Assembly: GCA_964507855.1 (NCBI GenBank)
Contig: CAZDQS010000004.1
Location: 80,888-122,182, forward strand
Length of the DNA: 41,295 bases
From: an uncultured Candidatus Saccharibacteria bacterium
Lineage (GTDB): Bacteria; Patescibacteriota; Saccharimonadia; Saccharimonadales; CAZDQS01
Direction of reading: 5' to 3'
The notes below the pieces were generated by a model. It saw nothing but the letters and a program-made list of their open reading frames with translations. It was not told where the DNA came from and searched no databases. Positions 9,599 to 31,016 of this stretch are shown piece by piece; within the stretch, counting starts at the first letter, position 1, and each line of letters begins with the position of its first letter. Position numbers and translations under genes: made by a program.

Positions 9599-12208
<2,610 letters not shown>

Positions 12209-14050: not shown

Positions 14051-14095
14051 GCCTTCTCCTGCTTATCTTTTTTATTATGGCACTGCCTTTTTGTA

Positions 14096-15346
14096 TCAGA
14101 TGTGAGTTTTATCACCCATATACGGGCGCAGTACTTCGGGAATTGCTACGTTTCCATCCTTGTCCTGATAATTCTCGATGATGGCTATGGCCATACGGCT
14201 CATCGCCGCTGCCGTACCATTCAACGTATGGACGAACCGAGTTTCTCCCTCTGGGGTACGGTAACGGATGTTCAGGCGCCGCGCCTGGTAATCCGTCACG
14301 TTCGAGCAACTCATCAGCTCGCGGTACGCCTGGTCAACGGGACTCCAGTATTCGATATCGTACTTCTTATACGCTGGCGCGCCGAGGTCGCCGGCGGCAA
14401 TCCGCACCAGCTGGTACGGTAGGCCGAGCGCCTGACACAACTCTTCTTCGAGCTGCACCAGCTTCTCGTGCCAGGCTTCGCTTTCTTCTGGCTTGCAGAA
14501 GACATATAACTCCAACTTGTTGAACTGATGCACGCGGTACAGGCCGCGACTATGCTTGCCATACGCGCCGGCTTCCATCCGGTAAGCCGGACTAAGACCA
14601 ACATAAAGTATCGGTAACGACTCGGCATCAAGAATCTCATCAGCATGGTAGCCCGTGAGCGGGATTTCTGCTGTAGCAATGAGGTTTAGATCCTCACCCT
14701 CAATCTTGTAGATTTGGCGCTCTTCCCCCCGCGGCAAGAAGCCGGTGCCGCTCACCGTGCGGGTATTGACCAGATGCGGCACGGTCATGGGCGTGAAGCC
14801 ATACTTCTCTGCAAGCGATAAGGCAAACTGGAAAACCGCCAACTCAAGTTGCACAAGGTTACCCTTCAGGTAGTAAAACTTATTGCCGGCCACCTTAGCG
14901 CCACGCTCGAAGTCTATCAGTCCGCGCTGCTCGCCCCACGACTGGTGGTCAATAATGGCAAAGTCCTGCTTGCCAGTCTCGCCCCACTGCTTCTCTGGCT
15001 TATTGGCCTCTTCGCCGCCGAGCGGTGTATCGTCAGGAAAGATATTCGGCACCGCGCCAAGCAGCTCGTCGTACTCCGCCATGACGGGTTCAAGCTCGGC
15101 TTCAAGCTGACTGATTTGCTCCTTGAAGCGCTTCCCTTCCTCTATCTGCTCCGGGGTTGGCTTGGTTTTCTTGAGTTGGTCTGCCAAAGTATTGCGCTTG
15201 GCGCGAACCTCTTCGATTTGCTGCACAGCATTTCGCCGCTGTTCATCAACCTGCAGCAGGCGCGGGATATCTACCTCGACGTGTTTTTGTTCGGCTTTTT
15301 TGCTGACAAGCTCGGCATTGTCACGGATAAACTGTATATCTAGCAT
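14096..15346 (-). CDS. serS: seryl-tRNA synthetase
   Basis: 416 aa. N-terminal coiled-coil arm (MLDIQFIRDN...) and a class II catalytic core (GLYRVHQFNKLE, TLNGTAAA). Confidence 0.97.
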   Translation of the reverse strand: MLDIQFIRDNAELVSKKAEQKHVEVDIPRLLQVDEQRRNAVQQIEEVRAKRNTLADQLKKTKPTPEQIEEGKRFKEQISQLEAELEPVMAEYDELLGAVPNIFPDDTPLGGEEANKPEKQWGETGKQDFAIIDHQSWGEQRGLIDFERGAKVAGNKFYYLKGNLVQLELAVFQFALSLAEKYGFTPMTVPHLVNTRTVSGTGFLPRGEERQIYKIEGEDLNLIATAEIPLTGYHADEILDAESLPILYVGLSPAYRMEAGAYGKHSRGLYRVHQFNKLELYVFCKPEESEAWHEKLVQLEEELCQALGLPYQLVRIAAGDLGAPAYKKYDIEYWSPVDQAYRELMSCSNVTDYQARRLNIRYRTPEGETRFVHTLNGTAAAMSRMAIAIIENYQDKDGNVAIPEVLRPYMGDKTHI

Positions 15347-15393
15347 GGCTTTAGTATATCGAAAGCGAAGTTAATTCAGAAGTAATTGCTGGC

Positions 15394-16182
15394 TCAGACA
15401 TGAACCAAGCATCGGCTGCCAAGCAGCTTGCCGGCGTGGATAGCTCGGTCGGCTGTGGCTTCTGCTATCCTGCCTGTCGTCTCATCAGAAGCAATGCCAG
15501 CTAGCCGGTGCGCAACTCCATGTACGATAAAGTCTCGTATAGCCGGCTCGCCGCCTTCGGGTGTCCGGCTGTTTTTCCGCGTGGCGGCCGCGAGCGCAAA
15601 ATCCGTACTCGCCTCTACCCGCGCCATTATCTCTGTCCGGCGACAAAGTGGCCACAGCAATCCGTACGACGGGGATGAAAACGTATGGTGTGTTCCAATC
15701 CCTACGGCTATTTCTTCGTCGAGACTTTCTTGCTTAGCCATAATATACCCATATATCGTATGCGGCTTCATTGCCTCGTATTTCTCATCATCCCAACCAA
15801 TTCCCGTCCTGCTGGATTCTATGACATCTGGTCGTTGCCTCTCGACCACCAACTTTCCAACGTCATTCAACATATCCGCGACCAGCATCTTTGCCGGATT
15901 CGGCAAATCGGCTGTATCCTGACCCGCCTCTTCACGATCCCTGACCAGTAGAGCCAGCACGTTCATGCCAATTGGCAGGCCCAAGGCGACCTCTCTTCCC
16001 CACTCCGGGTACCTTTCATAAAAAGGAGTAAAAAGACGCAGCGCCGAACTGCGCATGCTACTCGGCACCTCTGCTGCGGCCATCTCTTCCTCAATCAGCG
16101 TCCAATAGTCCGGTTCCCCGTTGACAATGCCTGGCTGCAGATTGCTTGCCGCCTCTACTGTGTGTATGTAGCTTTCGGCCAT
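15394..16182 (-). CDS. HD-superfamily-like protein with a degenerate metal site (HD replaced by ND)
   Basis: MLNDVGKL sits where HD-GYP/HD proteins carry LHDIGK. Downstream are KPHTIYGYIM and GIGTHHTF, resembling the later His motifs. The family assignment comes from motif recollection only. Confidence 0.55.
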   Translation of the reverse strand: MAESYIHTVEAASNLQPGIVNGEPDYWTLIEEEMAAAEVPSSMRSSALRLFTPFYERYPEWGREVALGLPIGMNVLALLVRDREEAGQDTADLPNPAKMLVADMLNDVGKLVVERQRPDVIESSRTGIGWDDEKYEAMKPHTIYGYIMAKQESLDEEIAVGIGTHHTFSSPSYGLLWPLCRRTEIMARVEASTDFALAAATRKNSRTPEGGEPAIRDFIVHGVAHRLAGIASDETTGRIAEATADRAIHAGKLLGSRCLVHV

Positions 16183-16307
16183 AAATAAAAGCCACCCGCA
16201 CCATTATGTTGATAAATTATAAAAATCCCTGCTTAAGAACTAGCTTGGCCACCGGACGAAACTATTTCTCAAAAGGGACTTCGTATGCCTGACATTATAC
16301 TCCTTTG

Positions 16308-17105
16308 TCAAGCAATTTTCTGCTGGCTTGCCCGAAGCGCTTTAATCGTCAGCTCCATACGCTGGCGCGCATAGGCGCAAAACTCGCATTCGCCCCCCAT
16401 TGCGCTGCTGCCAACCGGTGGCATATCACCCTCGAGGCACTCTTTCATCTTCATAAGCGTCGGCTCAACCCAATCGTCTTTACCGATGTGCGGGAAGACA
16501 TGGGTAGTGAACTTCACGACATCATTAAACCCATCACCGTTCATATCGCCGGTCGCGTAGACAAAGTAACCCGTATCGCTCACCGGAAAGCCGTTCTGAC
16601 GCAGCAGCCACTGGTACGTTTCCATCTGCCGACGGTAACCATCATGCCAGGTTCCGACCGGGCCGAGGTTTGTCACCGGCTTGTCTTTGGCAGTCGCCTT
16701 GTAGTCCACGACGATAAGGTTGCCATCATCGTCCACCCACACATCATCAACTGCGCCGAAGACGTGGAGGTTTGTTGGCTCATGAAGTGTAAAAACACCG
16801 GTAAAATTCTCGCGCCACGTATCGATGTCCTGGTGCGCAAACGGCTTGGCCTTGACGCTGAATTTCACCTGAAGCGGGTGCTGCGTCCCAGCGGCACGAT
16901 GTGCGTCAAATTCGCGCTTGAACAGCTCATCGATTGCCTTATTGATATTAAACGGCGGGCCATCAGGCCGCTTGATCTTCAGCCGCGCATCCAACCAGAA
17001 ACAGCGCGGACACTGCAAAAACAGCTCGATTTTGCTGCGGCTGACTTTAAACGGTGTTGTTTGCCCGGGCTGGTACGGGACGGACCGCTCCCTCCAATAA
17101 TTCAT
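16308..17105 (-). CDS. PD-(D/E)XK nuclease superfamily protein, Cas4/RecB-like with Cys cluster
   Basis: The core is GAVDDVWVDDDGNLIVVDYKAT (D...D/ExK). Cysteines: CPRC at residues 32-35, then C223, C240 and C243 (ECEFC). The opposite-strand 286-aa ORF is a shadow. Confidence 0.75.
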   Translation of the reverse strand: MNYWRERSVPYQPGQTTPFKVSRSKIELFLQCPRCFWLDARLKIKRPDGPPFNINKAIDELFKREFDAHRAAGTQHPLQVKFSVKAKPFAHQDIDTWRENFTGVFTLHEPTNLHVFGAVDDVWVDDDGNLIVVDYKATAKDKPVTNLGPVGTWHDGYRRQMETYQWLLRQNGFPVSDTGYFVYATGDMNGDGFNDVVKFTTHVFPHIGKDDWVEPTLMKMKECLEGDMPPVGSSAMGGECEFCAYARQRMELTIKALRASQQKIA

Positions 17106-17109
17106 CTCT

Positions 17110-17808
17110 CTATTGTAGCAGCTTGGCGCTTGCGGTTACACAGGCGGTTTCGGCACGGAGCGTGAAGTCACCGAGGTGCAAGCGGGCTATCTCCTGCAGC
17201 GTAAACAGATTGTTCTCACTGTCCGACCAACCGCCTTCCGGCCCGACAAACACGCCGGCCCGGTCGTAAGCTGGCAGCTTTTTCTTCTTGTCATCCTCCA
17301 ACTGGTCACACACATAAAGCGGTATCTTGCCCGAAAATTCATGCAAAGCAGTCTGTAGCAAAATCGGCTCACGCACCCGCGGAATGTCACTCCGGCCACA
17401 CTGCTCGGCAGCTTCGAGGACAATCTTCTCCGCGCGCTCAACGTCAAAGCCCTTCTTCTCGCTCCGTTCGGCCAGCACCGGCACGAAGTGGCTAACCCCG
17501 AGCTCAGTACACTTTTGCAGCACCCATTCATTCTTGTCTTTTTTGAGCAACGACCAGAAGAGATATATATCCTTGGCAGGCGTTTTTCGGACAAAGTCCG
17601 TAATAAGCTCCAGGTGAGCGGCGTCGTCCTTGAGTTCCGTAATGACATAGAGCCGTTCGTGCTCTACGCCGTCAAACAGCACCACTTCCTGCCCGGCGCG
17701 ATATCGAAGCACCTTGCGCCACTGGTCAAGTACACGCTTGTCCTTCAGCCACACGTAATGTGTCAGTTCAATCTCGTCCGGTGAAACATAAAACCTATGC
17801 AGTCGCAT
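17110..17808 (-). CDS. rsmE: 16S rRNA (uracil1498-N3)-methyltransferase
   Basis: Typical RsmE N-terminus MRLHRFYV, a PUA-like region and a SPOUT C-terminal domain (GPEGGWS). 232 aa. Confidence 0.9.
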   Translation of the reverse strand: MRLHRFYVSPDEIELTHYVWLKDKRVLDQWRKVLRYRAGQEVVLFDGVEHERLYVITELKDDAAHLELITDFVRKTPAKDIYLFWSLLKKDKNEWVLQKCTELGVSHFVPVLAERSEKKGFDVERAEKIVLEAAEQCGRSDIPRVREPILLQTALHEFSGKIPLYVCDQLEDDKKKKLPAYDRAGVFVGPEGGWSDSENNLFTLQEIARLHLGDFTLRAETACVTASAKLLQ

Positions 17809-17841
17809 AGGTTTTATTCTCTCTCATCTTGATGATTTTTA

Positions 17842-18387
17842 CTATTGTTCTTGGATTTGCATATCTAATGATCCGCCCTCGAGATCATTGAAGCTATCAA
17901 AGTACGCATCCCAGTCGAAATCCTCATCGAATGAGTTAAACTGCTGGCTAATATATGGCTTGATGGTTTGGCAGTTCTCACCTTCCTTATGGCCATAACC
18001 AAGATACAGATAGCTCGGTTCGTAGTCATCGGGGTAATCAATTTCAAAGTCACCCGCACCGCGAGATAGCGCACCCAACAGAACCTCCGACGTGCCTACA
18101 CCATATCCGCGGCTGGCTGATTTGTACGTAACGCAAAACTTATACCGCTCATCAGACAACTTCGTATAGGTAATAGTTGCCGGAACGTCGCGGGCGCCCG
18201 CTGCGTCCAATGACTCCGGGATCTGATTGTTGTCATCGACATAATCGTTCAGTTGTTCGGCGATTTCTTTAGCCTTGCTTTCGGTTTGCTTATCTTGCTT
18301 GCCGGCCATACCCTTTTGGACCGTAAAGATCGTCAGCCCAAGCGTCAGGGCTGCCAGGAGGAGCAGGCCGATGTAGTATTTCTTCAT
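17842..18387 (-). CDS. hypothetical secreted/membrane-anchored protein with acidic C-terminus
   Basis: N-terminal signal/anchor MKKYYIGLLLLAALTLGLTIF and a D/E/F/Y-rich tail. No motif recognised. Confidence 0.55.
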   Translation of the reverse strand: MKKYYIGLLLLAALTLGLTIFTVQKGMAGKQDKQTESKAKEIAEQLNDYVDDNNQIPESLDAAGARDVPATITYTKLSDERYKFCVTYKSASRGYGVGTSEVLLGALSRGAGDFEIDYPDDYEPSYLYLGYGHKEGENCQTIKPYISQQFNSFDEDFDWDAYFDSFNDLEGGSLDMQIQEQ

Positions 18388-18398
18388 TGCTTAATCTC

Positions 18399-19193
18399 CT
18401 ACCGCCTGCCCACTAAACGGTGTTCGTCCATCCAGTAGTAGGCAAACAGTCCGCCGGCAATTACCAATACTACAAGCAACTGCAGAACCGTCTTACCGAA
18501 GGATTCAATCTCCTGCCCGCCCGCCGCGGCGACCAATTGGTACACAAAGCCGACGATATTGAAGAGACATATAAGAAAGGTGAAGAACTGGGTAAGCTGC
18601 GAGAAACGCCGCTTTGAAGGTTCCAGCCGGAGCACGGGGTTTGCCACTTCTGCTCGCTTCAGGCGGAGAAAGAAGAAGGCAAAAACCGGCAAGCTAACCA
18701 GTAGCAGCGATATAGGGAACGCCAGCATATCAAAGCCCGCGTTATCACCATCGATTAGAGCAAGCAGAATCCAAGCCAGTGATGCAGCGCCAAACCATAG
18801 CGTAAAGGTCATAAGGCCATACTCCACACCCCGTACACTGAGGACTTTAACAACCGGCATAGGCTGGCCGTCTTCAGGGGCATTGGCGGCAGTTGGCGTG
18901 GCCGGTACCGGCGGCTCCGGCAATGCAGGTGCTGGAGCTGATGACGACTCGGGGCTTCGGTCTGCAAATGCCGGGAACGCAAATGGCACGTGCTGCTTTG
19001 GCTCGTCAGCTGGGCGGGCTGGTCCTGGCGATTCGTCACTACGCGGACTTTCTTCCCGCTCCTCTAGTTCTGGCTGCGGAGGTGCCGCGCCAAATGACGG
19101 CTCAGTGGCCATGTTCTCTGTTTGCACTCCCGGGTCATCGGAGCTGCTATCTTGATGATCGCGGTAATTGTTAGACTCACGCCACTCTTCCAT
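18399..19193 (-). CDS. membrane protein with Pro/Glu/Ser-rich N-terminal region and ~4 TM helices
   Basis: I chose the start at ATG 19193 (MEEWRES) with AAGGA upstream. The track start at 19226 is a GTG sitting inside the -10 box. The C-terminal half is strongly hydrophobic. Confidence 0.6.
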   Translation of the reverse strand: MEEWRESNNYRDHQDSSSDDPGVQTENMATEPSFGAAPPQPELEEREESPRSDESPGPARPADEPKQHVPFAFPAFADRSPESSSAPAPALPEPPVPATPTAANAPEDGQPMPVVKVLSVRGVEYGLMTFTLWFGAASLAWILLALIDGDNAGFDMLAFPISLLLVSLPVFAFFFLRLKRAEVANPVLRLEPSKRRFSQLTQFFTFLICLFNIVGFVYQLVAAAGGQEIESFGKTVLQLLVVLVIAGGLFAYYWMDEHRLVGRR

Positions 19194-19227
19194 AGGGAAA
19201 ATCCTTTTTGTTGTTACATTTATCACG

Positions 19228-19243
19228 AGTATAGCATAAGCTT
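19228..19243 (-). promoter_or_regulatory. extended -10 promoter element AAGCTTATGC-TATACT
   Basis: The reverse complement reads aagcttaTGcTATACT, 35 nt upstream of ATG 19193. The -35 is poor and overlaps the end of the upstream gene. Confidence 0.45.
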
Positions 19244-19256
19244 TTTGCGCCAGATG

Positions 19257-20507
19257 TTATTTTCGCTCAAGGACAGCGAGCGTCTCGATATGCGGCGTGC
19301 GAGGAAAGAAGTTATATACCTCAAAGAAGTTTATGCTGTATTTCTCCTGCAACAATCCCAAATCCCGCGCGTGTGTCGCAGGATTGCATGATAAGTACAA
19401 GACTCTTGGCGGGAGCACCTCAAGCACTCGCTCCGTCAATTTCGGATGCAAGCCCGCCCGCGGCGGATCAAAGATTATTGGCCGGTCAGACATGACATAG
19501 TCGAGAGCTTTCTCCGTAGATGTTTCTATCACTTTCGCCTCGAGCTCGCTCTTGTGGGCATTTTTGCGCGCCATGGCTGCCGTCGCCGGATCAAGCTCGA
19601 CAAGCGTCACGCTTTTCTTCGCCAGACTCAGCCCTATCGAACCGACACCGGCATACATATCAACCAACTCATCTCCATTGGCAAACTCCTTCATTCTCGC
19701 AAGCGCCCGTTCAAAAATCGGCACATTGACCTGGAAAAATGAATCCACGTCATAGACAAATTCCCTGCCCAACAGCTCATCCTGCAGGAGCACCAAGCCC
19801 TGCTCACGCAAAAGCTCCGTCGGCACCGACGCCGGACTTTTCGGGTTGGAATAATACACCCTGAGCCCCTTCAACTGCGGCGGCAGCTTCACTTCAGGAA
19901 AGTCCTGTCGCTTCACGAACAGGCTGGCAGCGACATCACTTTCTTGCGAACATCGAACAATTATTGTCTTCAGATCGCCTGCCCGAATGGACAATGCATT
20001 GAGCTGAGCAAGAACTGCATTCGCAGCCGTATCCAACGCTGGCATGGCCAGTTTACTGCCCTGCACTATCTGTTTCTGGTGGCTACCGCGATTATAGAGA
20101 GCCAGATGAATACCGTCATCGTCTCCATAAAAGCTGTACTCCATTTTGTTGCGATAGTCGTATTCGTATTCCGTATAACGTATTTCGTATGCTGGTAAGT
20201 GCACTCTGTCGCGCTGGAACAATTCATCAACTATTTCTTTTTTATGTTTGTTCTCGGCTTCGAACGTCATGATTTGCCACGGACTTGTGGCTAAGAAATT
20301 TGGCTCTTCCGGTTCAATACGGTCTGGAGACGACACTATGATTTCTTCGGCAATACCTTCTGCGAACGACTTCTTGCGCTTCCAAAGCTTGACGCGCACC
20401 TTCTCGCCAGGCAAAGCATTCCAGACAAACACCTTTCGTCCATCAGGCAACGTGCCTAATCCCTGCCCGCCATGGACAAGTTTCTCGATCTGCACCTCTT
20501 CAAACAT
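19257..20507 (-). CDS. TrmA/RlmD-family RNA (uracil-5)-methyltransferase with TRAM-like N-terminus
   Basis: Class I SAM fold (VDMYAGVGSIG) and catalytic Cys in YLSCNPATHARD. The Cys cluster of Fe-S-containing RlmD is absent. Confidence 0.85.
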   Translation of the reverse strand: MFEEVQIEKLVHGGQGLGTLPDGRKVFVWNALPGEKVRVKLWKRKKSFAEGIAEEIIVSSPDRIEPEEPNFLATSPWQIMTFEAENKHKKEIVDELFQRDRVHLPAYEIRYTEYEYDYRNKMEYSFYGDDDGIHLALYNRGSHQKQIVQGSKLAMPALDTAANAVLAQLNALSIRAGDLKTIIVRCSQESDVAASLFVKRQDFPEVKLPPQLKGLRVYYSNPKSPASVPTELLREQGLVLLQDELLGREFVYDVDSFFQVNVPIFERALARMKEFANGDELVDMYAGVGSIGLSLAKKSVTLVELDPATAAMARKNAHKSELEAKVIETSTEKALDYVMSDRPIIFDPPRAGLHPKLTERVLEVLPPRVLYLSCNPATHARDLGLLQEKYSINFFEVYNFFPRTPHIETLAVLERK

Positions 20508-20516
20508 ACTGTCTTA

Positions 20517-21140
20517 TTATACAGAGGTCGCCACGATATTCATCAGCTCATTAGGCCGACTTATAAAATAATCCGGCTTGTGTGCTTGTAAAATCACGTT
20601 GCCATTGTAGCCCCAGCCTACTGCTACTGCCTTCACTCCCGCCTTCTTGGCTGCTTCAATGTCCCTTACCTCGTCACCCACACAATATGTTTGAACTGGA
20701 TCCAGCTGCTCCTCGCGGATAATGTTCTTTATCACCTTTGTTTTGCCAAAAACACCAATATTGCCATATATTCCGCTGAAGCAACCGTCGATTTGATGGC
20801 GCTTTAGGAATGCATCTATATTTTCCTGACTATTAGAGCTCGCGACGAACAATCTGTGGCCAGCACTTGATAATGACTCAAATACCGGCGCTAGCCCCTC
20901 GAATATCGTTGCCTGCGGCATGGTTTTGGTCATCTCGGCCCTTCCCCAAACCAGCAAGCCCGGCATCCGCCACAGCGGCACGCCAATTTCACGCAAGAGT
21001 TCACGTACCGTCATGTTGCGGTAGCGCTCAACTTCTTCAGCTGTAATCGGATCCTTTCCCGACCAGCGGTCAAATATTTCGATAACAAGAGGCAACGTAT
21101 CGGCAATTGTTCCGTCAAAGTCAAATATTACGTTGGCCAT
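20517..21140 (-). CDS. HAD-superfamily hydrolase (phosphoglycolate phosphatase-like)
   Basis: Motif I FDFDGTIADT, motif II VASSN, motif IV CVGDEVRD. Confidence 0.85.
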   Translation of the reverse strand: MANVIFDFDGTIADTLPLVIEIFDRWSGKDPITAEEVERYRNMTVRELLREIGVPLWRMPGLLVWGRAEMTKTMPQATIFEGLAPVFESLSSAGHRLFVASSNSQENIDAFLKRHQIDGCFSGIYGNIGVFGKTKVIKNIIREEQLDPVQTYCVGDEVRDIEAAKKAGVKAVAVGWGYNGNVILQAHKPDYFISRPNELMNIVATSV

Positions 21141-21149
21141 GCGGTGATA

Positions 21150-21989
21150 TTACGGCCGTAGCGCCCCGGCAAAAACCTGCCAGGCTAAAGCGCTCTTAGC
21201 CACCAAACTTAATATCATATAAGCACGCTCACCGTAGAGGTAATCTGCCCACTTACCCTTTCGCTTGTACTGCAGGTACATGTTGATCGCAAACAGGTTA
21301 AAGAATACAAAGATGCTCACGTATATCCAGTAAACGAACGCAGGAACATTACCTTCACCGTACAAGTTGGCGTGCCACAGGTAAGTACCAATGACCACCC
21401 ACGGGATAATTCCGGCGATACAGCCGATAACAAAGTTCGACCAGTCCACATCTTGCCGGTCTTTGTTGCGCCATTCCATCGCCAGTCCCATGAGGTTCAT
21501 GATAGCCACAAAACCAAATAGCATCAGAAGCGCCGTGATGCTATAGACGCCACTGAGCAAACCGATAGCCACTATCATGGTGCTGGCGCTGAACGCATAC
21601 TCTATCCAGCGCGCTTTATTTATGCCGTGCGTCAGCCCTGATTCATATCCTTTGCGATACCACGTGGCTACGACACCATGGGCGACAGCCGACATAAAGA
21701 AAAACGCTGCCACAAGATAGGCTAAGTTGATATCAAACAAATGCCGCGTCGCCTCAGCCAACACCGGCCGGTCAACAGCGCGGCTAGCCAGCTCATCAAT
21801 GCTGAGAAAGGTCGTATTGACCGGCAGCGTAGCGTTGCGAGCCAGCGCCAGCACGGCGACACCCTGCAGGGCGTGCAGCCCCGCCAACACTATGTTCCAC
21901 TTGCGTAAACCGTTTCGTGTAATTTGTTTGTTTTTCTTTCCGGTAGTCTTTGACTTTCCCTGCTCGTCCACAGAAGTGATTTTATTCAT
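21150..21989 (-). CDS. heliorhodopsin
   Basis: Seven TM helices. It aligns closely with my recollection of heliorhodopsin 48C12: RWIEYAFSASTMIV (counter-ion Glu130), GCIAGIIPWV, and YLQYKRKGKWADYLYGERAYMILSLVAKSALAWQVF. The Schiff-base Lys265 is codon 21195-21197, and His39 and His104 are retained. Confidence 0.9.
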   Translation of the reverse strand: MNKITSVDEQGKSKTTGKKNKQITRNGLRKWNIVLAGLHALQGVAVLALARNATLPVNTTFLSIDELASRAVDRPVLAEATRHLFDINLAYLVAAFFFMSAVAHGVVATWYRKGYESGLTHGINKARWIEYAFSASTMIVAIGLLSGVYSITALLMLFGFVAIMNLMGLAMEWRNKDRQDVDWSNFVIGCIAGIIPWVVIGTYLWHANLYGEGNVPAFVYWIYVSIFVFFNLFAINMYLQYKRKGKWADYLYGERAYMILSLVAKSALAWQVFAGALRP

Positions 21990-22026
21990 TTCTTCAATAT
22001 AACAGAAAGCGGGCGCTTAAGCAGGA

Positions 22027-22665
22027 TTAATCAACCGGTGTATATGGGACATGACAGGCGCCGCGGCCGGTTTTCTCGGTGAATTTCTGATGATAGTCCT
22101 CTGCGGGATAGAATTCTCCAGCCTTAGTAATCTCCGTTACGATGGGATTGTCGAAATTCTTTTGTTGCTCGGACTTCACTCTTTCTGCTACTTCTTTTTG
22201 CCCATTACTGAAGTAAAAAATCGCAGAGCGGTACTGGTCGCCAACATCCGGCCCTTGGCGGTTGAGCTGTGTTGGGTCGTGCATCCTGAAAAATTGCTTC
22301 AGGAGGATACGAAACGCATCGGCCTGCTGGCTAGCAGAGCTAGCCACTCTGCCGCTGCTTGCGGCTTGCTGCTGTGTTGCCGCCTCCGATACTCCCTTCA
22401 CCGTATTTAGATACGGCTCGGTCCGTTTCTCGTCGGCGCCTTGCATCAAACTCGCATTCGTACCTCCTGCAACCACGACTTCCGGGTTATACTCAATGAG
22501 CACAGCTTCGGCGTGGCCAGTACCTTCATAACAAACCTGCTCATATGTTGGATGCTCAGCATGGCCGCCGGTATAGCCGACGGTCGTCTTCACAACCCCA
22601 GGCACCTGGTCAAAGTAGTATTGAACACCCCAGAAACATCCAGCCGCAAACAAAGCCTTATCCAT
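22027..22665 (-). CDS. msrA: peptide methionine (S)-sulfoxide reductase MsrA with an internal low-complexity insertion
   Basis: Contains the GCFWG active site, VGYTGG and HDPTQLNRQGPDVGDQYRSAIFY. A ~50-aa Q/A/S-rich insert lies between EYNPEVV and LLKQFFRMHDPT. Confidence 0.9.
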   Translation of the reverse strand: MDKALFAAGCFWGVQYYFDQVPGVVKTTVGYTGGHAEHPTYEQVCYEGTGHAEAVLIEYNPEVVVAGGTNASLMQGADEKRTEPYLNTVKGVSEAATQQQAASSGRVASSASQQADAFRILLKQFFRMHDPTQLNRQGPDVGDQYRSAIFYFSNGQKEVAERVKSEQQKNFDNPIVTEITKAGEFYPAEDYHQKFTEKTGRGACHVPYTPVD

Positions 22666-22682
22666 GAATATAATTATACGCC

Positions 22683-24215
22683 CTAAGACTCAAGCCGCAG
22701 GCGGCTTACTAGCCAATCACGCGGAAGCAAGCTCAAAAACCAGCCGGCGCGCGGACCAGATGATTTGCCGATAAGGACTTCGTATAATGTGCTGAAGAGC
22801 TCCTTGGGCGGCAGCCCGCTGGTCTCCTTGAAGTCATAGATTGCCTTGTGGAACCATTCGCCATCGGCATCCTCCGGCGCCTGCTCAATCTTTGCCGCAA
22901 GATCAGCAAGATACTGCCTCTGCGCGTCACTTAAGCCATTGTCTTCATAGCTATTCAGAAGCTCAAACTTTACCTCATCAGGAGCCCAGCGCTTAAGCCA
23001 GTTATCTATAAACCTTAGCTCTTCTAAGATAATCTCACGTTGATTTTCAACGTTTTCCCTATGTTCTGTCCGCGCTATGACTTCAAGTGTTTTGATAGGG
23101 TCCTTCAGTGATGCCTGATAACTGGCGACAAGATGCGAAAATGGCACATTGCTGACAGTCCGCTTTTCTATACCCTGCTCTGCAGTTGCGACCAGCTGCT
23201 TTTCCGCCTCGGACTTGTTGGGTTTTGCGAGCAGTTCACTAAATTCATCAAAAAGCCGGATTAAGGTCGGTCCTTGGTCAAAAAACATCAGTTTATCAGG
23301 GCTTGAGCGAAGCAAAAAGTACCAGACGATCTCTGCCGGCAATACTTCTAACAAATCAGCGGCAGTGATGGTGTCACCTGCACTCTTGCTCATTTTCTTA
23401 GTATCACCAGTGCGATTAATAAAGTTGTATGGAACTGGCACGGGCGCCTCAATACCAAACACCTCTTTTGCGATAACGACACCAGTGTCGTAAGAACCGC
23501 CCTTCGTGGCGTGGTCACGACCAAACGGTTCAACATCCACGCCGAGTAGCCACCAGCGTGCAGGCCAATCAATACGCCAATTAAGCTTTACCTGGCCTTT
23601 GTCATACCCGGTTATTTGCTCTTTCCCGTCTTTATCGATATAAACGAGTGTTTTGTTATCAACATCAATGCTTACATACGGACGGTTTTTTAGATAACCG
23701 TCCTCAACTACCTGCACCGGAGACCACTGCTCATCCAATTTGCGCCCAGAGACTTCTTCCAGAATCCCCTTGATCTTGTCAGTATTCTCTAGAGCCTTTT
23801 CTATGGCAGGCACAAAATACCCCAAACGGTACTTTTCATGTGCCCGCATAATATCCATATCGAGCTTTAAATCCCGGGAGGCTTTCAAGAGATCTTGGAG
23901 ATAGTAATCCGCATAAGACTGGTCGGAACCATCGGGAGCAGGTACGTCACAAAGAGGCATGCCAAGATATTTCTCAAACTCTTCAGGTACACCCACAGGC
24001 ACCTTCCTAAACACATCCAGATCATCCACCACATGGATATGTCGGGCTTGCCTTCCGCGCCGCCTCAATTCGCGAGCAATCGCCTCTGCAGTCAAGACTT
24101 CGCGAAGTGTTCCGAGATGGTACGTACCCGATGGGGATACGCCAGAGGAAACAAGAATCTCCCCGTCCGGATGGCGGGCAATTAGCTCATCGACAATGTT
24201 ATTCAACCACTGCAT
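22683..24215 (-). CDS. lysK: class I lysyl-tRNA synthetase
   Basis: 510 aa. Class I Rossmann signatures HLGT (HIGH-like) and KMSKS, with archaeal-type LysRS architecture. SD AAGGAAG upstream. Confidence 0.9.
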   Translation of the reverse strand: MQWLNNIVDELIARHPDGEILVSSGVSPSGTYHLGTLREVLTAEAIARELRRRGRQARHIHVVDDLDVFRKVPVGVPEEFEKYLGMPLCDVPAPDGSDQSYADYYLQDLLKASRDLKLDMDIMRAHEKYRLGYFVPAIEKALENTDKIKGILEEVSGRKLDEQWSPVQVVEDGYLKNRPYVSIDVDNKTLVYIDKDGKEQITGYDKGQVKLNWRIDWPARWWLLGVDVEPFGRDHATKGGSYDTGVVIAKEVFGIEAPVPVPYNFINRTGDTKKMSKSAGDTITAADLLEVLPAEIVWYFLLRSSPDKLMFFDQGPTLIRLFDEFSELLAKPNKSEAEKQLVATAEQGIEKRTVSNVPFSHLVASYQASLKDPIKTLEVIARTEHRENVENQREIILEELRFIDNWLKRWAPDEVKFELLNSYEDNGLSDAQRQYLADLAAKIEQAPEDADGEWFHKAIYDFKETSGLPPKELFSTLYEVLIGKSSGPRAGWFLSLLPRDWLVSRLRLES

Positions 24216-24226
24216 GTATCTTCCTT

Positions 24227-24258
24227 AAAAACAATCTGGGGTAAGTATACCCCAGATT
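24227..24258 (-). terminator. rho-independent terminator after greA
   Basis: A 9-bp stem AATCTGGGG/CCCCAGATT (24233-24241/24250-24258), followed on the minus strand by GTTTTT. Confidence 0.7.
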
Positions 24259-24284
24259 GGTAGTTCTTTGTAATATGTACCGTC

Positions 24285-24746
24285 TTAGGATATGTCGACG
24301 ATTTTGTAGGTGCTCGTCTCTATCGGGGTCTTTATCTCGACTTCTTCGCCTTCTTTTTTGCCGAGGAGCGCCTGACCGATTGGTGATTCGTCAGAAATCT
24401 TGCCGTTGATTGGGTCCGCCTCGACAGTGCCGACCACCTGGAATTCCTTGGTCTTGCCACCGCCATCCTGAAGCTTCACAACTGAGCCCAGCTGCACTTT
24501 ACTGTCGCCCTTCGGCTTCTTGATAAACTCAACGTTCTGCAAGATGTGCTCGATTTCAGCAATGCGACCCTCTACGCGTTCCTGCTCCTGACGGGCGGCT
24601 GTATACTCGGCATTTTCGCTCAGGTCACCGAACTCGCGGGCTGTCTTGATACGCTCAGCGATAGGAGCGCGTTGCGCCAACAACTCTTCAAGCTCTTTCT
24701 CGAGCTCATCAACACCTTCTTGGGTTAAACGAAATAATTTTTTCAT
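24285..24746 (-). CDS. greA: transcription elongation factor GreA
   Basis: 153 aa. N-terminal coiled coil with an acidic tip (GDLSENAEY) and a C-terminal FKBP-like domain. Confidence 0.95.
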   Translation of the reverse strand: MKKLFRLTQEGVDELEKELEELLAQRAPIAERIKTAREFGDLSENAEYTAARQEQERVEGRIAEIEHILQNVEFIKKPKGDSKVQLGSVVKLQDGGGKTKEFQVVGTVEADPINGKISDESPIGQALLGKKEGEEVEIKTPIETSTYKIVDIS

Positions 24747-24808
24747 GCTAATGCAACACTCCTATCTCATCTGTTAAACCCACCAGGTTGTGGGTTATTA
24801 TACTGGTA

Positions 24809-26065
24809 CTACGACTTTATTTCCAGTGTATTTAACACTGTTTCTTTAGATACAATTCTGGTGCTTTCTTGGGTTCGTTCCTTGATTTCGTAGCCACTCT
24901 TCTCTAGTGTCTTATCGCTCACGACAATCCGGTACGGTATCCCCATAAGGTCGGCGTCCGCAAACTTCTCGCCCGGACGCGCATCCCGGTCATCATAGAG
25001 TACCGTAATAGAATTTTCTGTCAATCGTTTGTAAAGTTCATCCGTTGCCATCACCACTTCTTCGCTGTCACCTATTCGGATAAGGTAGACCTCCGCAGGC
25101 GCAATGTTCCGCGGCCAGATCAAGCCCCTGTCGTCGCTTAAGAGTTCGGCCACGGTGCCCATGACCCGGCTAACACCGATTCCGTAACATCCCATAATGA
25201 GCGTTACGGGTTTGCCCGTCTCATCCGCCACGCTTACATCGAACGGAGCTGAAAACTTCGTGCCGAGACTGAAGATGTTACCCACTTCGATAGCACGCAC
25301 TTCTTCAAGCTGCTCTCGATTAACGCCAAGCTCGGCTACGACCTCGTCCGTATATACTTCTTTGTTAATTGCGATGCCCTTTTTCCTGTCCAGATAAATC
25401 GTATCCTCACCTGCATCACTCAAGGTTTGGAACTCGTGGCTAAACTTGCTGAAGCTCCCGCCGCTCGCAAATGTCATGAACGTGCGATCTCCAATACCGA
25501 CCCGGTCGTAAACGCGCCGGTAGGCCTCTTGGGCTTGCGCGTAAAACGCTTGATGCTGCTCGTCAGTCATGGCGAATGAATACATGTCTTTCATCAAGAA
25601 TTCGCGTCCGCGCATCAGACCGCTCTTTGAACGGAGCTCGTTTCGGAACTTGGTTTGGATCTGGTAAGGTGCGATGGGCAGGTCTTTGTATGAGTTCACG
25701 TAATTTTTTACGATTGGCGAGAGGTTTTCTTCGTGGGAAAACCCGAGGCCAAGCTCGGTGCCGTTGGCGAGCTTGGTCTTAAACCAGTTGTCGACGATGC
25801 TATCATCCCACCGGTTGGTCGCTTCATAGCGTTCTTTTACTTGGAGAGCCGGCATTAATATCTCCTGCCCGCCGATCGCATCCATCTCTTCGCGAATAAT
25901 GGCCGCTATTTTATTGAGCACACGAAGTCCGAGCGGCATATAGCTGTATACCCCCGCCATCTCTTTGTGGACGAACCCGGCTTTAATGAGCAGCTGTGCG
26001 TTCTTCGCCGTTTCGTCGGCAGGCACCTGCTTACTCGTCTTCGTGAATAACTGCGAAACTCTCAT
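24809..26065 (-). CDS. proS: prolyl-tRNA synthetase, bacterial-type lacking the INS editing domain
   Basis: The N-terminus (MRVSQLFTKT) and motifs 1-2 (YQIQTKFRNELRSKSGLMRGREFLMKDMYSF) match bacterial ProRS. It is only 418 aa, and the sequence runs from motif 2 to motif 3 with no ~180-aa insertion. Confidence 0.9.
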   Translation of the reverse strand: MRVSQLFTKTSKQVPADETAKNAQLLIKAGFVHKEMAGVYSYMPLGLRVLNKIAAIIREEMDAIGGQEILMPALQVKERYEATNRWDDSIVDNWFKTKLANGTELGLGFSHEENLSPIVKNYVNSYKDLPIAPYQIQTKFRNELRSKSGLMRGREFLMKDMYSFAMTDEQHQAFYAQAQEAYRRVYDRVGIGDRTFMTFASGGSFSKFSHEFQTLSDAGEDTIYLDRKKGIAINKEVYTDEVVAELGVNREQLEEVRAIEVGNIFSLGTKFSAPFDVSVADETGKPVTLIMGCYGIGVSRVMGTVAELLSDDRGLIWPRNIAPAEVYLIRIGDSEEVVMATDELYKRLTENSITVLYDDRDARPGEKFADADLMGIPYRIVVSDKTLEKSGYEIKERTQESTRIVSKETVLNTLEIKS

Positions 26066-26096
26066 AAACTCTTATTCTCTTTAAGCACATTGTACC

Positions 26097-26870
26097 CTAG
26101 TTAATCGGAAATATAAAAAGCACCAAAAACGCCAGACCGTTCTTCATGGCATGCAGGCCTATGGGCGCCCACAAACCATTGGTGACATCACGCACATATA
26201 TAAGGATAACCGACAGTACAAAAGTATCGATAGCCGCAGCCCAGAGCGGCGGCGCGCCCGCGCCGAGCTGCAAATGGGCCACCGCAAAGACAAAGCTCGT
26301 CAATATCACCGCCCATACTTTCGGTAAACTCTTTTTGAGACCGAGGTATAAGTAACCGCGAACGAGTATTTCTTCAACCAGCGGCGGCAAAACCACCAGG
26401 CTAATGAACACCAGTATCAGCTGCCAGCCACCTACTGCTGCATCGAATCCAAGTTGCTGTGACTGCTCCTGATCGATTTGCGGCAACAATACTTCAGTTA
26501 ACCTGGAGACCAGTATAAGCGACGGGATATACAGCCCGAGCCCTATAAGCGCATAGCCGAGGTCTTTTAGCTTTGGGCGACGCAGACCGAGCGTTCTGAA
26601 ATTGGCTTTACTGCCCTTCAGTACCCAGTACAACAGCCCCAGCGTTGCGGCCTCGACAAGCAGTATCCAGAAAAACTGCGTCACGACTGAGTTGTTGAGC
26701 AATCCTTCGGCCTCGTTGACACTCAGGCCGCTCAAACCCGAATAGATACCGAACAGTACGACCGCAATAAACTGCGCCCCGAAGTAAATAGCGATTGTCC
26801 CAACCACCGCCGCTACAGGCCCCCACAATATATGGTGGCGCTTTTCTTTTGCCTGACCGCCATGCTCCAT
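26097..26870 (-). CDS. CPBP-family intramembrane glutamic endopeptidase (CAAX protease-like)
   Basis: Multi-TM protein with motifs EEILVRGY and FAVAH. Confidence 0.8.
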   Translation of the reverse strand: MEHGGQAKEKRHHILWGPVAAVVGTIAIYFGAQFIAVVLFGIYSGLSGLSVNEAEGLLNNSVVTQFFWILLVEAATLGLLYWVLKGSKANFRTLGLRRPKLKDLGYALIGLGLYIPSLILVSRLTEVLLPQIDQEQSQQLGFDAAVGGWQLILVFISLVVLPPLVEEILVRGYLYLGLKKSLPKVWAVILTSFVFAVAHLQLGAGAPPLWAAAIDTFVLSVILIYVRDVTNGLWAPIGLHAMKNGLAFLVLFIFPIN

Positions 26871-26886
26871 ATGATGCTCTCTACGT

Positions 26887-28029
26887 TTAAAGCTTGCCTA
26901 TGTCAGATATGATGATAAGGACAGAAAGCAGCAAGAGGGCCACGAATCCCGTTCCGTGAATTTTTTCTTCGACCGAGCGGGTTAAAACAACGCTTTTTTG
27001 GAAGAGACTAGCAATCCGATCCAGTCCACGGTACAACAGCATCACGAACAAGCGGCCGCCATCTATGGCAGGAATCGGCATAGCGTTAATGATTGCCAAT
27101 GTCAGTGATATAAGCGCAATAAGCAAAATAACCATCGCAAAGCTCGTACGGCTTACTTCTATTAAAAGTGCACCAAGAATGACCGGCCCGCCAACCTGCT
27201 GGCTTGCCGACTGCACGTCACCGCGCAGTAAACCCGAGAGCGCGTTACCCAACCCCGACAATGTCAGGTCGGTGAACTGCCACATTGTCCCCGCGGCCAC
27301 AACCGGTGCAGACCAGGTATACCGTTCGACGCGCACCCCTTCCTGCAGCGACTGATTGGCCACTCCGAGGTACCCTTCCTCGCGCGCTTCTTCCGCCTGG
27401 TTAAGTCGAGTGCGGACTACCCGCTCCTCTCCATCCCGCTGCAATACAATCTCCACCTCCTGGCCTGCATGTGCAGCCGTTTCAGTTGAAAGCTTTTGCG
27501 GTGTATCAATCGGCTCGCCGGCTACCGAAACCACGCGATCGCCCTGCTTTATACCCACATCCGCTGCCGGGCTTCCATCCTTTACCTCAGTAACCTCAAC
27601 AATGCCCTCGTTTTTTGGCACCTGCACAACATGTGCGTCGTTCGCGACGGTGAACTGGTCACCAAGCAGTTTCGGCATACCGATGAGCGCCAACGCCGTA
27701 AACAGCACGAATGCCGTCAGAAGGTTCATACCTACACCAGCTAGCAAGACTTTTGTCTTCACCCACGTCGATGAGGCCCCAAATGCGCCCTTTTCCTTCG
27801 CTTCGTCATACTCACCCTTCAGCTTGACGAAGCCGCCAAGCGGCAGCCAGTTAAGGGTATAGACGGTGCCGTTTTTCTTGCCCAGCATTTTTGCTCGAGG
27901 CGGAAACCCAATCCCAAACTCTTCGACTTCAATACCATTACGTCGTGCAACCAGAAAGTGCCCCAGCTCGTGCAGGACGACGAGGCCAACAAACATAAGT
28001 AATCCCAAAATCACAAAGAGTATTGTCAT
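26887..28029 (-). CDS. rseP: RIP metalloprotease RseP (site-2 protease, M50)
   Basis: HELGH in TM1, an internal PDZ domain, and NAMPIPAIDGG near the C-terminus. Confidence 0.9.
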   Translation of the reverse strand: MTILFVILGLLMFVGLVVLHELGHFLVARRNGIEVEEFGIGFPPRAKMLGKKNGTVYTLNWLPLGGFVKLKGEYDEAKEKGAFGASSTWVKTKVLLAGVGMNLLTAFVLFTALALIGMPKLLGDQFTVANDAHVVQVPKNEGIVEVTEVKDGSPAADVGIKQGDRVVSVAGEPIDTPQKLSTETAAHAGQEVEIVLQRDGEERVVRTRLNQAEEAREEGYLGVANQSLQEGVRVERYTWSAPVVAAGTMWQFTDLTLSGLGNALSGLLRGDVQSASQQVGGPVILGALLIEVSRTSFAMVILLIALISLTLAIINAMPIPAIDGGRLFVMLLYRGLDRIASLFQKSVVLTRSVEEKIHGTGFVALLLLSVLIIISDIGKL

Positions 28030-28082
28030 AGTAAGTATTAGTATACAAGCTGAAGCAGCTAGTTCACAGCCGAAATTACGTG

Positions 28083-28787
28083 CTACGTGCCATATCGACG
28101 CTGGCGATGCGCATATTCTTCAAGTGCGGCATCCATATGCTCGGCCGTGAAGTCTGGCCAGTACGTGTTAGTAAAGTACAGTTCGGCATAGACAACGCGC
28201 CAGAGCATAAAGTTGCTAATCCGCTGCTCGCCAGAGGTACGGATCATCAAATCAACCGGCGGGATTTCGGGATGATAAAGCTCCCCGGACAACGCTTCTG
28301 CAGTAATTTCATGAGCTGGAGTTCCCTTTTCTACCAACGTGCGGGCAGCGTCTACAATCTCCTGCTGACCGCCGTAGTTGAAGCACAGTGCAATTGTACC
28401 CTTCGTGTTTGTGGCCGTCTCTGACTCTGCCTTCTCAATTGCCTTGATGACATTTTTATCAAGCCCTTCACGAGAACCAAGCACAACTATCCTGATGTCT
28501 TCTTGCTTAACCTCGGCCAGGTACTTCTCGAGCATCCGACTAACAAGCTTCATGAGATATGAGACTTCTTCCTGGGTACGTTGCCAATTCTCGGTCGAGA
28601 AGACATAGGCTGAGACGTATTTCACTCCACGCTCAAACGCCGCAGATGTCACCTTCTGGAGTACATCCGCGCCCTGGCGATGCCCCTCAATACTTGGCAA
28701 TCCTCTCTTCTTCGCCCACCGACGATTACCATCAAGGATCAGACCCACATGCAGCGGTACAGCCGATACTTCATCAATTGCGGACAT
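28083..28787 (-). CDS. uppS: undecaprenyl diphosphate synthase (cis-isoprenyl transferase)
   Basis: Motifs LDGNRRWA and RTSGEQRISNFMLW. 234 aa. Confidence 0.95.
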   Translation of the reverse strand: MSAIDEVSAVPLHVGLILDGNRRWAKKRGLPSIEGHRQGADVLQKVTSAAFERGVKYVSAYVFSTENWQRTQEEVSYLMKLVSRMLEKYLAEVKQEDIRIVVLGSREGLDKNVIKAIEKAESETATNTKGTIALCFNYGGQQEIVDAARTLVEKGTPAHEITAEALSGELYHPEIPPVDLMIRTSGEQRISNFMLWRVVYAELYFTNTYWPDFTAEHMDAALEEYAHRQRRYGT

Positions 28788-28810
28788 ATGAAAAGTATAT
28801 TCCTTTGCTT

Positions 28811-28839
28811 AATAAATTAAGAGGGGCATCCGCCCCTCT
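28811..28839 (-). terminator. rho-independent terminator after frr
   Basis: An 8-bp GC stem AGAGGGGC/GCCCCTCT (28820-28827/28832-28839) with a tetraloop, followed on the minus strand by TAATTTATT. Confidence 0.6.
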
Positions 28840-28844
28840 CCTGC

Positions 28845-29408
28845 CTACACCGTCATTATTTCTTGCTCTTTGGCCTTTGCAAGCGAGTCAACTTCTGCCT
28901 TCACCTTGGCCATGTGTTCGTCAACTTGCTTCTCGAGCCGTTTGGCATCGTCGTCACCAATCGTCTTATCCTTCTTGGCTTGGTCGATATCTTTGAGCGC
29001 ATCATGGCGAATGTTGCGCAGCGTAATCATCGTGTCCTCGACCTTGCCGCTCAAGACCTTCACATACTCGCGGCGACGCTCCTCAGTCAACGGCGGGATC
29101 GGTACCCGCACAACCCGGCCGTCATCGCTTGGGTTGAGGCCTAGCGATGGATTATCACGAATCGCACTCGCGATAGCCTGTAAATTGTTCGGGTCAAACG
29201 GTGTAATTTGCAGCAACTGCCCCTCCGGCGCAGTTACAGTCGCGACTTGGTTGATCGGCATGGCCGTACCATAGGCCTGGACTACCACGCTATCCAGCAT
29301 GCCAGGATGCGCCCGGCCCGTACGGACTTTCTTCAGTTCCTCCTGAAAGTGCGCCACCGCACCCTGCATCTTGGTTCTTGCCTGGTCAACTACTTGGTTT
29401 GGATTCAT
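28845..29408 (-). CDS. frr: ribosome recycling factor
   Basis: 187 aa with typical RRF sequence (VRTGRAHPGMLD..., PIPPLTEERR). SD AAAGGAG. Confidence 0.95.
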   Translation of the reverse strand: MNPNQVVDQARTKMQGAVAHFQEELKKVRTGRAHPGMLDSVVVQAYGTAMPINQVATVTAPEGQLLQITPFDPNNLQAIASAIRDNPSLGLNPSDDGRVVRVPIPPLTEERRREYVKVLSGKVEDTMITLRNIRHDALKDIDQAKKDKTIGDDDAKRLEKQVDEHMAKVKAEVDSLAKAKEQEIMTV

Positions 29409-29541
29409 AAAGCTCCTTTTTCAGTTCACTGATTACAGTATACCGTTTTGTGTTTTGTTTTAGCCTGGCAATTTCTCTTGCTTGGTGAATATACAAAGGA
29501 AGCGCCAAAAGAGCGCCCCCCTGCATATTGATGTCTAAAGA

Positions 29542-30138: not shown

Positions 30139-30139
30139 A

Positions 30140-30880: not shown

Positions 30881-30981
30881 TTTAGTAAATCCTTTCTCTT
30901 CGTAATGGAGTTGCTCCGATAAGTCCTGCACGGTACTTACGGAGAGGATTCATCTCCACACTGTTTAATATTGACCGGCTA

Positions 30982-31010: not shown

Positions 31011-31016
31011 GTCATC

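Follow-up and report, generated by a model that had tools for sequence, protein, structure and literature searches.

Does the reading frame at positions 21150 to 21989 (minus strand) of a Saccharibacteria contig encode a working heliorhodopsin (HeR), and how would a retinal protein serve a bacterium of the Candidate Phyla Radiation (CPR; also called Patescibacteria)? We analyzed a stretch of 41,295 nucleotides, hereafter the window, from contig CAZDQS010000004.1 (assembly GCA_964507855.1) of an uncultured Candidatus Saccharibacteria bacterium. An earlier note, made from the sequence alone, had named the 279-residue product a HeR encoded in a segment dominated by housekeeping genes. It had also suggested that the chromophore may have to come from a host. 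Our analysis leads to the conclusion that the gene encodes, as judged from its sequence, a bona fide HeR that should be competent to bind the chromophore. We give a probability of roughly 85% to the full reading, in which this HeR is a light sensor or regulator that relies on exogenous retinal and is expressed from its own promoter as a leaderless transcript.

Family identity and predicted fold

The open reading frame (ORF), for which the earlier note had named no strand, runs from ATG to stop on the minus strand and yields a protein of 279 amino acids with seven transmembrane helices. Search with profile Hidden Markov Models, the first check that the earlier note had proposed, returned the HeR family PF18761 as the sole significant Pfam match (E = 2.6e-89, 299.2 bits against a cutoff of 26.7), covering profile positions 1–242 of 242. 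The NCBIfam HeR equivalog NF038020 was likewise matched over its full length (299.4 bits against a cutoff of 100; positions 1–244 of 244). The type-1 rhodopsin profile PF01036 gave no match to the protein at E values up to 1. The DxxxK signature of type-1 rhodopsins on helix G is also absent, as Ser rather than Asp stands four residues ahead of the Lys. Among sequences in the PDB, the best match was the HeR of Thermoplasmatales archaeon SG8-52-1, TaHeR (6IS6, E = 1.5e-65), followed by the actinobacterial fosmid prototype 48C12 (6SU3 and 9LJJ, E of about 3e-51). Global identity amounts to 47.6% with TaHeR and 43.9% with 48C12.

The predicted structure leads to the same family. An AlphaFold2 model built from 86 homologues (mean predicted local distance difference test score, 92.7; predicted template-modeling [TM] score, 0.86) comprises seven long helices and a two-stranded AB-loop sheet with strands at residues 53–63 and 76–87, as is typical of HeRs; low confidence is confined to the Lys-rich N-terminal ~20 residues. 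In a Foldseek comparison with the PDB, TaHeR ranked first with a target-normalized TM-score of 0.93 and a root-mean-square deviation of 1.9 Å, and 48C12 reached a TM-score of 0.90, whereas type-1 rhodopsins scored about 0.5–0.73 with E values of 2e-4 or worse. Using the helix boundaries of the model, we counted 13 Lys and Arg residues in the loops on the N-terminal side versus five on the other side, four of which sit in the 39-residue AB loop. This excess on the N-terminal side is the positive-inside pattern expected for the inverted topology of HeRs, and the N-terminus is accordingly predicted to be cytoplasmic. Thus, the identity that the earlier note had assigned is borne out alike by the profiles, by residue-level matching to 48C12 and TaHeR, by the fold of the model and by the predicted topology.

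The protein nevertheless differs in detail from both structural references. It has all Schiff-base and cavity residues in common with TaHeR (PDB 6IS6, 7CLJ and 7U55), and also a Met at the position of 48C12 Gln213. Compared with that archaeal protein, both its Lys-rich N-terminal tail and its AB loop are longer, and its residues Ile194 and Phe227, which set the width of the lateral fenestration, follow 48C12, whose fenestration has been described as tighter than that of TaHeR (PMC7049168). With 48C12 (PDB 6SU3, 6SU4, 6UH3 and 9LJJ) it shares an identical fenestration motif and the same set of Lys, Glu, two His and Ser; the differences are Met in place of Gln213, Ser in place of Asp127, and a CPR host that is probably unable to make retinal.

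Residues of the Schiff base and retinal pocket

To map functional residues, we aligned 202 sequences and used the lists of conserved residues of Kovalev et al. 2020 (PMC7049168). The SxxxK motif on helix G, S261-L-V-A-K265, corresponds to Ser237 through Lys241 of 48C12. The retinal Schiff-base lysine, Lys265, aligned to Lys241 of 48C12 and to its TaHeR counterpart, is encoded by the AAG codon at 21195–21197 (minus strand). The Schiff-base counterion, Glu130 (GAG codon at 21600–21602, minus strand), is accompanied by the stabilizing serines Ser100 and Ser134, these three residues corresponding to Glu107, Ser76 and Ser111 of 48C12; a third stabilizing serine, Ser261, is also kept. Motifs that had been quoted in support of the initial assignment were all located, namely SLVAKSALAWQ at residues 261–271, RWIEYAFSAS at 127–136, GCIAGIIPWV at 189–198 and YLQYKRKGKW at 238–247, and both conserved histidines, His39 and His104, are present as described there.

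The remainder of the pocket is similarly retained. The Schiff-base cavity is formed by His39, His104, Asn124, Tyr131, Asn32, Glu254, Arg127 and Tyr115, which match His23, His80, Asn101, Tyr108, Asn16, Glu230, Arg104 and Tyr92 of 48C12, respectively. Also kept are the hydrophobic barrier (Leu28, Leu119 and Leu251), the region around 48C12 Glu149 (Glu172, Gln240, Tyr250 and Trp128), the surface clusters (Gln42, Ser266, Trp270, Gln271 and Ser225), and two prolines, Pro56 and Pro196, the latter corresponding to the helix-E π-bulge proline Pro172 of 48C12. All 17 polar or charged residues listed as conserved in HeRs (PMC7049168) are conserved here; the one variant is Met237 at the position of 48C12 Gln213, where Met is a frequent substitution among HeRs (PMC7049168). 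Across the alignment, the Lys, the Glu and both His occur in 199 of 200 relatives. Retention of the Lys, the counterion and the retinal pocket in 199 of 200 relatives argues for selection on chromophore binding.

The one exception is a divergent tandem paralogue in a related locus (L012, contig CAZPWF010000003.1), where it occupies locus positions 10858–11778 (plus strand) directly downstream of a canonical HeR gene at 9995–10798. Its 306-residue product is 24–26% identical, matches PF18761 with 98 bits and carries a long N-terminal tail rich in Lys and Thr. Arg replaces the Schiff-base Lys, Asp replaces the counterion Glu and both cavity His are lost, so the paralogue is a candidate for a retinal-free heliorhodopsin-like protein.

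An extended −10 element before the start codon

The 5′ flank of the HeR gene reads TGT-TATATT-GAAGAA-ATG, that is, an extended −10 promoter-like element at 21996–22004 (minus strand) that ends 6 nt before the ATG, in a leaderless-type geometry and with no Shine–Dalgarno core. The hexamer TATATT itself, pointed out in the earlier note as the gene's own −10-like box, lies at −12 to −7 (21996–22001 in plus-strand numbering) and is followed by the spacer GAAGAA. Comparative evidence backs this observation. In the related loci described below, the pattern TGnTAnnnT with its hexamer starting at −13 to −11 precedes 44 of 80 HeR genes (55%) versus 72 of 1147 other genes of the same loci (6%), and at a control offset it precedes none of the 80. 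In 46% of HeR genes a TAnnnT hexamer starts exactly at −12, the background frequency being 2.8%. This conserved geometry suggests that the HeR gene has an extended −10 promoter of its own, from which a leaderless mRNA arises.

Similar boxes are not confined to HeR genes. Only 13 of 39 ORFs in the window have a Shine–Dalgarno core, and many genes instead carry a TATAAT-like box ending 6–10 nt before the start, for example upstream of 7055 (FtsE), 8192 (RF2), 15346 (SerRS), 20507 (TrmA), 21140 (HAD), 22665 (MsrA), 28029 (RseP) and 28787 (UppS). A strict −10 box at −17 to −11 precedes 26% of window ORFs and 17% of 1189 genes in the related loci, versus 4% expected in either case. These frequencies suggest that leaderless transcripts are common in these Saccharibacteria. 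The word "leaderless" was not found in the top-ranked CPR literature.

Retinal supply and a probable sensory role

We then considered where the chromophore would come from. Among the Pfam-scanned ORFs of the window, none matches the carotenoid, phytoene, lycopene-cyclase, beta-carotene dioxygenase or type-1 rhodopsin families, as the earlier note had stated for crt and blh. Jaffe et al. 2022 detected no blh in Saccharibacteria that carry rhodopsins and noted that HeR rapidly binds added retinal, which enters by an opening in the apoprotein; external retinal is loaded within seconds both by HeRs and by type-1 rhodopsins of Saccharibacteria, and the same authors already proposed that Saccharibacteria rhodopsins use host-derived retinal (PMC9296517). 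For TaHeR, uptake of retinal through the lateral fenestration has been shown. A supply of retinal from the host is consistent with both the window and the findings of Jaffe et al. 2022, and we infer it from 41 kb of the genome. The Saccharibacteria type-1 proton pumps, termed SacR (PMC9296517), offer a parallel, as they share the host phylum and the proposed dependence on host Actinobacteria for retinal; unlike the HeR studied here, they belong to PF01036, carry a DTS motif, have their N-terminus outside and pump protons outward.

On this basis, the protein is most likely, by analogy with its characterized relatives, a non-transporting light sensor or regulator that operates on exogenous retinal. 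As in 48C12 and TaHeR, it would bind all-trans-retinal covalently and absorb visible light, would go through a slow photocycle without transporting ions, and may sense light or exert regulation by way of its cytoplasmic face. To judge by the genes in the window and by published genomics of Saccharibacteria, the cell would be unable to make retinal, and the apoprotein would be loaded through the lateral fenestration with retinal from the host or the environment. Expression would proceed from the gene's own extended −10 promoter, whose conserved geometry points to a leaderless mRNA.

Several points weigh against this reading. The absence of pigment genes covers 41 kb rather than the whole genome, and retinal binding, absorption, photocycle and non-transport are extrapolated from proteins that are 44–48% identical. 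A two-hexamer sigma-70 scan of positions 19000–25000 yielded no −35/−10 pair upstream of the HeR gene, with a total pair count no higher than in shuffled sequences; what speaks for a promoter is therefore the extended −10 geometry together with its conservation. At the dimer interface, Asp127 of 48C12, paired there with Tyr179 from the second protomer, is replaced by Ser150 (codon 21540–21542), although Asp is found in 191 of 200 relatives and the partner Tyr203 is kept; because of this replacement, oligomerization could differ. Finally, no conserved partner, be it a histidine kinase, a transducer or another protein, stands beside these HeR genes. The window holds no histidine kinase or response regulator, and an aggregated Pfam scan of 101 further, otherwise unannotated HeR neighbours found no family represented more than twice, and thus no histidine kinase, response regulator or redox partner that recurs.

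Relatives, genomic slot and inheritance

A protein search returned 6542 proteins at E ≤ 1e-20, the best non-self match being 65% identical, and several of the matches are already named "heliorhodopsin HeR [Candidatus Saccharibacteria bacterium]" at NCBI. The identical protein is also encoded on two short Logan contigs, from the runs SRR7082976 and SRR7082984, which no paper was found to mention. For comparison of gene neighborhoods, we used the best 80 of 196 confirmed relatives (loci L001–L080; one-genome-per-species representatives; 52–66% identity). Nearly all of these loci derive from metagenome-assembled genomes of Saccharibacteria, Saccharimonadales or Patescibacteria, which bears out the earlier guess of a CPR bacterium. 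A neighbor-joining tree, answering the request in the earlier note for a phylogeny with known HeRs, separated CPR HeRs from TaHeR and 48C12, grouped the HeRs of syntenic loci together and placed the window protein on its own branch among them.

About 50 of the 80 loci have a common backbone in the order S2-EF-Ts-RRF-UppS-RseP-Rce1-aminoacyl-tRNA synthetase-GreA-[slot]-RsmE-PD-(D/E)XK nuclease-SerRS-HPF-SecA-M16-RF2-FtsEX. In the syntenic loci, the HeR gene always lies in the variable slot between GreA and SerRS, where the changing genes include class-I or class-II LysRS, a zincin, DUF427, a MacB-type ABC transporter, MsrA, sortase, HAD and TrmA. The same backbone also occurs without HeR, in L083, L091, L097 and others, with the slot shrunk to GreA-LysRS-(few genes)-SerRS. 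These HeR-less relatives came from a GreA-anchored metagenome scan with generic peptide patterns, in which most of the 80 loci retrieved were from unrelated bacteria and about 12 were usable. Since the slot is shared and loci with the same backbone lack the gene, HeR is an accessory gene that is passed on within a Saccharimonadales lineage, with gain or loss at a single place on the chromosome. The Saccharibacteria-specific syntenic backbone and the native GC content (51.1% for the HeR gene versus 51.7% for the window) lead us to reject contamination or mis-binning from Actinobacteria.

In the window itself, HeR and its closely spaced neighbours lie on the minus strand. Directly upstream of HeR, across a 37-nt gap, lies the peptide methionine sulfoxide reductase MsrA (22027–22665; PF01625, E = 1.8e-55). 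Directly downstream, after 9 nt, follows a HAD-family phosphatase-like hydrolase (20517–21140; PF13419, E = 4.5e-35), whose TAATAT box overlaps the HeR stop codon; a HAD gene is found at +1 of HeR in 16 related loci. The second gene downstream encodes a TRAM-domain RNA (uracil-5-)-methyltransferase resembling TrmA and RlmD (19257–20507; PF05958 and PF01938), and its relatives stand at +1 of HeR in 15 related loci and at +2 in five. The short gaps (37, 9 and 9 nt) had suggested an msrA-heR-HAD-trmA operon, an arrangement weakened by the finding that each gene has its own −10-like box 6–8 nt before its start. Within positions 19000–25000, the only strong terminator-like hairpin, a 12-bp stem followed by a T-run at 24232–24259 (minus strand), separates GreA from LysRS.

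The first gene past that terminator, at the upstream edge of the slot, encodes a class-I lysyl-tRNA synthetase (22683–24215, minus strand; PF01921, E = 1e-100). Class-I, archaeal-type LysRS occupies this position after GreA in the window and in 15 tblastn-positive loci, and a class-II LysRS cluster of 25 members is found there in others (loci compared include L002, L007, L008, L010, L030 and L044). Among related Saccharibacteria, an essential enzyme has here undergone non-orthologous displacement in place.

Some more distant Saccharibacteria loci, other than the window, flank HeR with ABC transporter genes of two types. In L070 and L080, an ABC ATPase and a MacB-type permease directly follow HeR, and in L056, L069 and L076, an ABC ATPase and an ABC-2 permease lie directly upstream. 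These flanks recall the pairing of HeR with an ABC transporter studied by Cho et al. 2024.

Alternative roles for the heliorhodopsin

Could the protein mainly harvest light with two chromophores, holding an exogenous xanthophyll antenna at the fenestration and serving energy capture or other photochemistry rather than signalling? Its sequence does carry the lateral-fenestration, carotenoid-site motif of fenestrated HeRs. The motif, defined in a preprint (Kornilov et al. 2025) in 48C12 numbering as aromatic residues at 162 and 206, small residues at 166 and 210, Gly169 and Asn207, is complete here as Phe186, Cys190, Gly193, Phe230, Asn231 and Ala234, identical to 48C12, and xanthophylls would be within reach of a cell that has no outer membrane and is attached to hosts that make pigments. 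The same preprint, however, reports the motif in 91% of HeRs, so that it does not discriminate; the proposal depends on this single docking-based study, with no measured carotenoid binding for any HeR, and no energy-conserving output is known for non-viral HeRs. A bound antenna would also be compatible with a sensory role. We therefore regard light harvesting as the main function as unlikely and retain the light-sensor reading.

The second alternative makes HeR the light-sensing arm of a photo-oxidative-damage module that, upon illumination, binds or activates MsrA, the HAD phosphatase or both. It has a genomic starting point, as in 25 of 80 loci MsrA is no more than two genes away from HeR (at −1 in 12 and at −2 in 13) and MsrB (SelR) stands beside HeR in one further locus, whereas the approximately nine backbone loci without HeR gave a single MsrA-like match, weak (31% identity) and on the opposite strand. 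The idea also has precedents: an oxidative-stress role for HeRs has been proposed (Bulzu 2021; Chiriac 2022, PMC9166423), Cho 2024 shows that HeRs are able to regulate the products of adjacent genes, and other HeRs regulate a glutamine synthetase, photolyase or ABC transporter encoded alongside. Yet the adjacency to MsrA is restricted to one syntenic lineage, with none in about 30 non-syntenic HeR loci, and thus does not amount to independent evidence. MsrA is missing from roughly half of the syntenic loci, in 11 loci a sortase gene in divergent orientation lies between MsrA and HeR, and with a −10 box each, MsrA, HeR, HAD and TrmA need not be co-transcribed. The co-occurrence test is underpowered, as the HeR-less loci available for comparison are few and phylogenetically redundant, MsrA is not among the ten HeR-neighbour groups of Cho 2024, and no paper in the literature searched links HeR with MsrA.

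Taken together, these observations make the damage module improbable as an account of HeR function. MsrA is the only recurrent redox neighbour; it fits a photo-oxidative-stress hypothesis without establishing it. Given the single lineage, the half of it that lacks MsrA and the sortase interruptions, we treat the pairing as a lead, and a direct functional link between HeR and MsrA seems doubtful, on our estimate a long shot. The MsrA of the window is itself unusual in that a 51-residue insertion rich in Gln, Ser and Ala (residues ~60–110; ~22336–22488) interrupts its catalytic domain; the insertion is absent from six aligned relatives, and the GCFWG active-site motif is intact.

The two remaining alternatives fare far worse than a sensory HeR. 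That the protein is a light-gated proton transporter or channel resembling viral V2HeR3 is very improbable: some viral subfamily 2 HeRs do transport protons (Cho 2024; Kornilov 2025 preprint), and that subfamily commonly has Glu at 48C12 position 202, has lost Pro172 and has no carotenoid-binding site (PMC7049168; Kornilov 2025 preprint), but the window protein falls among CPR HeRs, stands closest to two non-transporting proteins, TaHeR and 48C12, and keeps Pro196 and the carotenoid-site motif, together with Ile226 at the Leu202 position, which is Ile, Met or Leu in all relatives and never Glu. We give equally little credence to a relic or non-photoactive apoprotein left with no retinal, which the lack of retinal synthesis genes in the window and the Lys-less L012 paralogue, a sign that such HeR-like proteins exist in the group, would favor, since the ORF is intact, the Lys, counterion and pocket are maintained among relatives, the promoter element is conserved and external retinal is taken up so quickly by HeRs and Saccharibacteria type-1 rhodopsins.

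Gene content of the window

The window is gene-dense, with a coding fraction of 87%, and the description of its surroundings as housekeeping-dominated is borne out by aminoacyl-tRNA synthetases, SecA, RF1 and RF2, S2, EF-Ts, RRF, UppS and RseP, FtsEX, and GreA. A Pfam scan of all 37 ORFs first called identified CTP synthase, an S41 peptidase, a CHAP protein, FtsEX, RF2, an M16 peptidase, SecA, HPF, SerRS, RsmE, DUF5671, the TrmA-like methyltransferase, the HAD hydrolase, HeR, MsrA, class-I LysRS, GreA, a class-II aminoacyl-tRNA synthetase, an Rce1-like protease, RseP, UppS, RRF, EF-Ts, S2, a PL14-CARDB-dockerin protein, L31, RF1, a second dockerin protein, HtrA and LytR. Scans of the window for tRNAs and Rfam families gave no match.

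One of the called ORFs was rejected. The plus-strand ORF at 16305–17165 (286 aa), the longest at that place and seemingly conserved in tblastn, is a shadow of the real gene at 16308–17105 (minus strand), which encodes a 265-residue PD-(D/E)XK nuclease and adjoins SerRS in 38 related loci. Its removal leaves 36 genes, and every gene from 13679 to 32678 then lies on the minus strand.

Two secreted-looking proteins with a C-terminal type-I dockerin are encoded at 31017–32678 and 35148–36116 (both minus strand), one with a PL14 polysaccharide lyase and a CARDB domain and the other with a weak lysozyme-like match. They are possible host- or matrix-interaction proteins of an episymbiont.

Significance

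HeRs of this group have been described before. A screen of 1326 CPR genomes by Chiriac et al. 2022 (Microbiome, PMC9166423) yielded 98 HeRs, 80 of them in Saccharimonadia; SLVAK was among the commonest Lys motifs, and the authors discussed a role in oxidative stress. The window protein shares with those HeRs its family, host group, SLVAK motif and predicted inverted topology, and its closest database relatives, 60–66% identical, occupy the same genomic slot; it differs in being at most ~66% identical to the relatives found, in forming its own branch and in having Ser for the dimer Asp. The novelty implied by the earlier note was therefore overstated, while its identification and its ecological idea of host-supplied retinal are both correct, and both are already in the literature. 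What is new here is modest: a conserved slot with HeR-less counterparts, a conserved extended −10 promoter of leaderless type, and a lineage-restricted adjacency to MsrA.

By itself the gene contributes little, as both the family and its occurrence in Saccharimonadia had been published before. The biological role of HeRs is only partly known, and a genome far smaller than 1 Mb, whose visible part shows no two-component system, offers fewer possible partners. With pigment genes absent from the window, chromophore supply becomes an ecological question of host dependence. The slot with and without HeR in related genomes provides natural plus/minus comparisons, and MsrA, as the only recurrent stress-related neighbour, supplies one hypothesis that is cheap to test. 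In a tentative extension that we hold to be improbable, HeR in retinal-auxotrophic episymbionts, functional only when host or surroundings provide retinal and perhaps a xanthophyll, and made from a dedicated leaderless transcript, might sense light and a pigment-producing host at once and switch on the repair of photo-oxidized proteins by MsrA, with the HAD phosphatase or the RNA methyltransferase as further possible outputs. If this were true, HeR would gain a definite partner open to testing, within a minimal genome where candidate interactors are very few.

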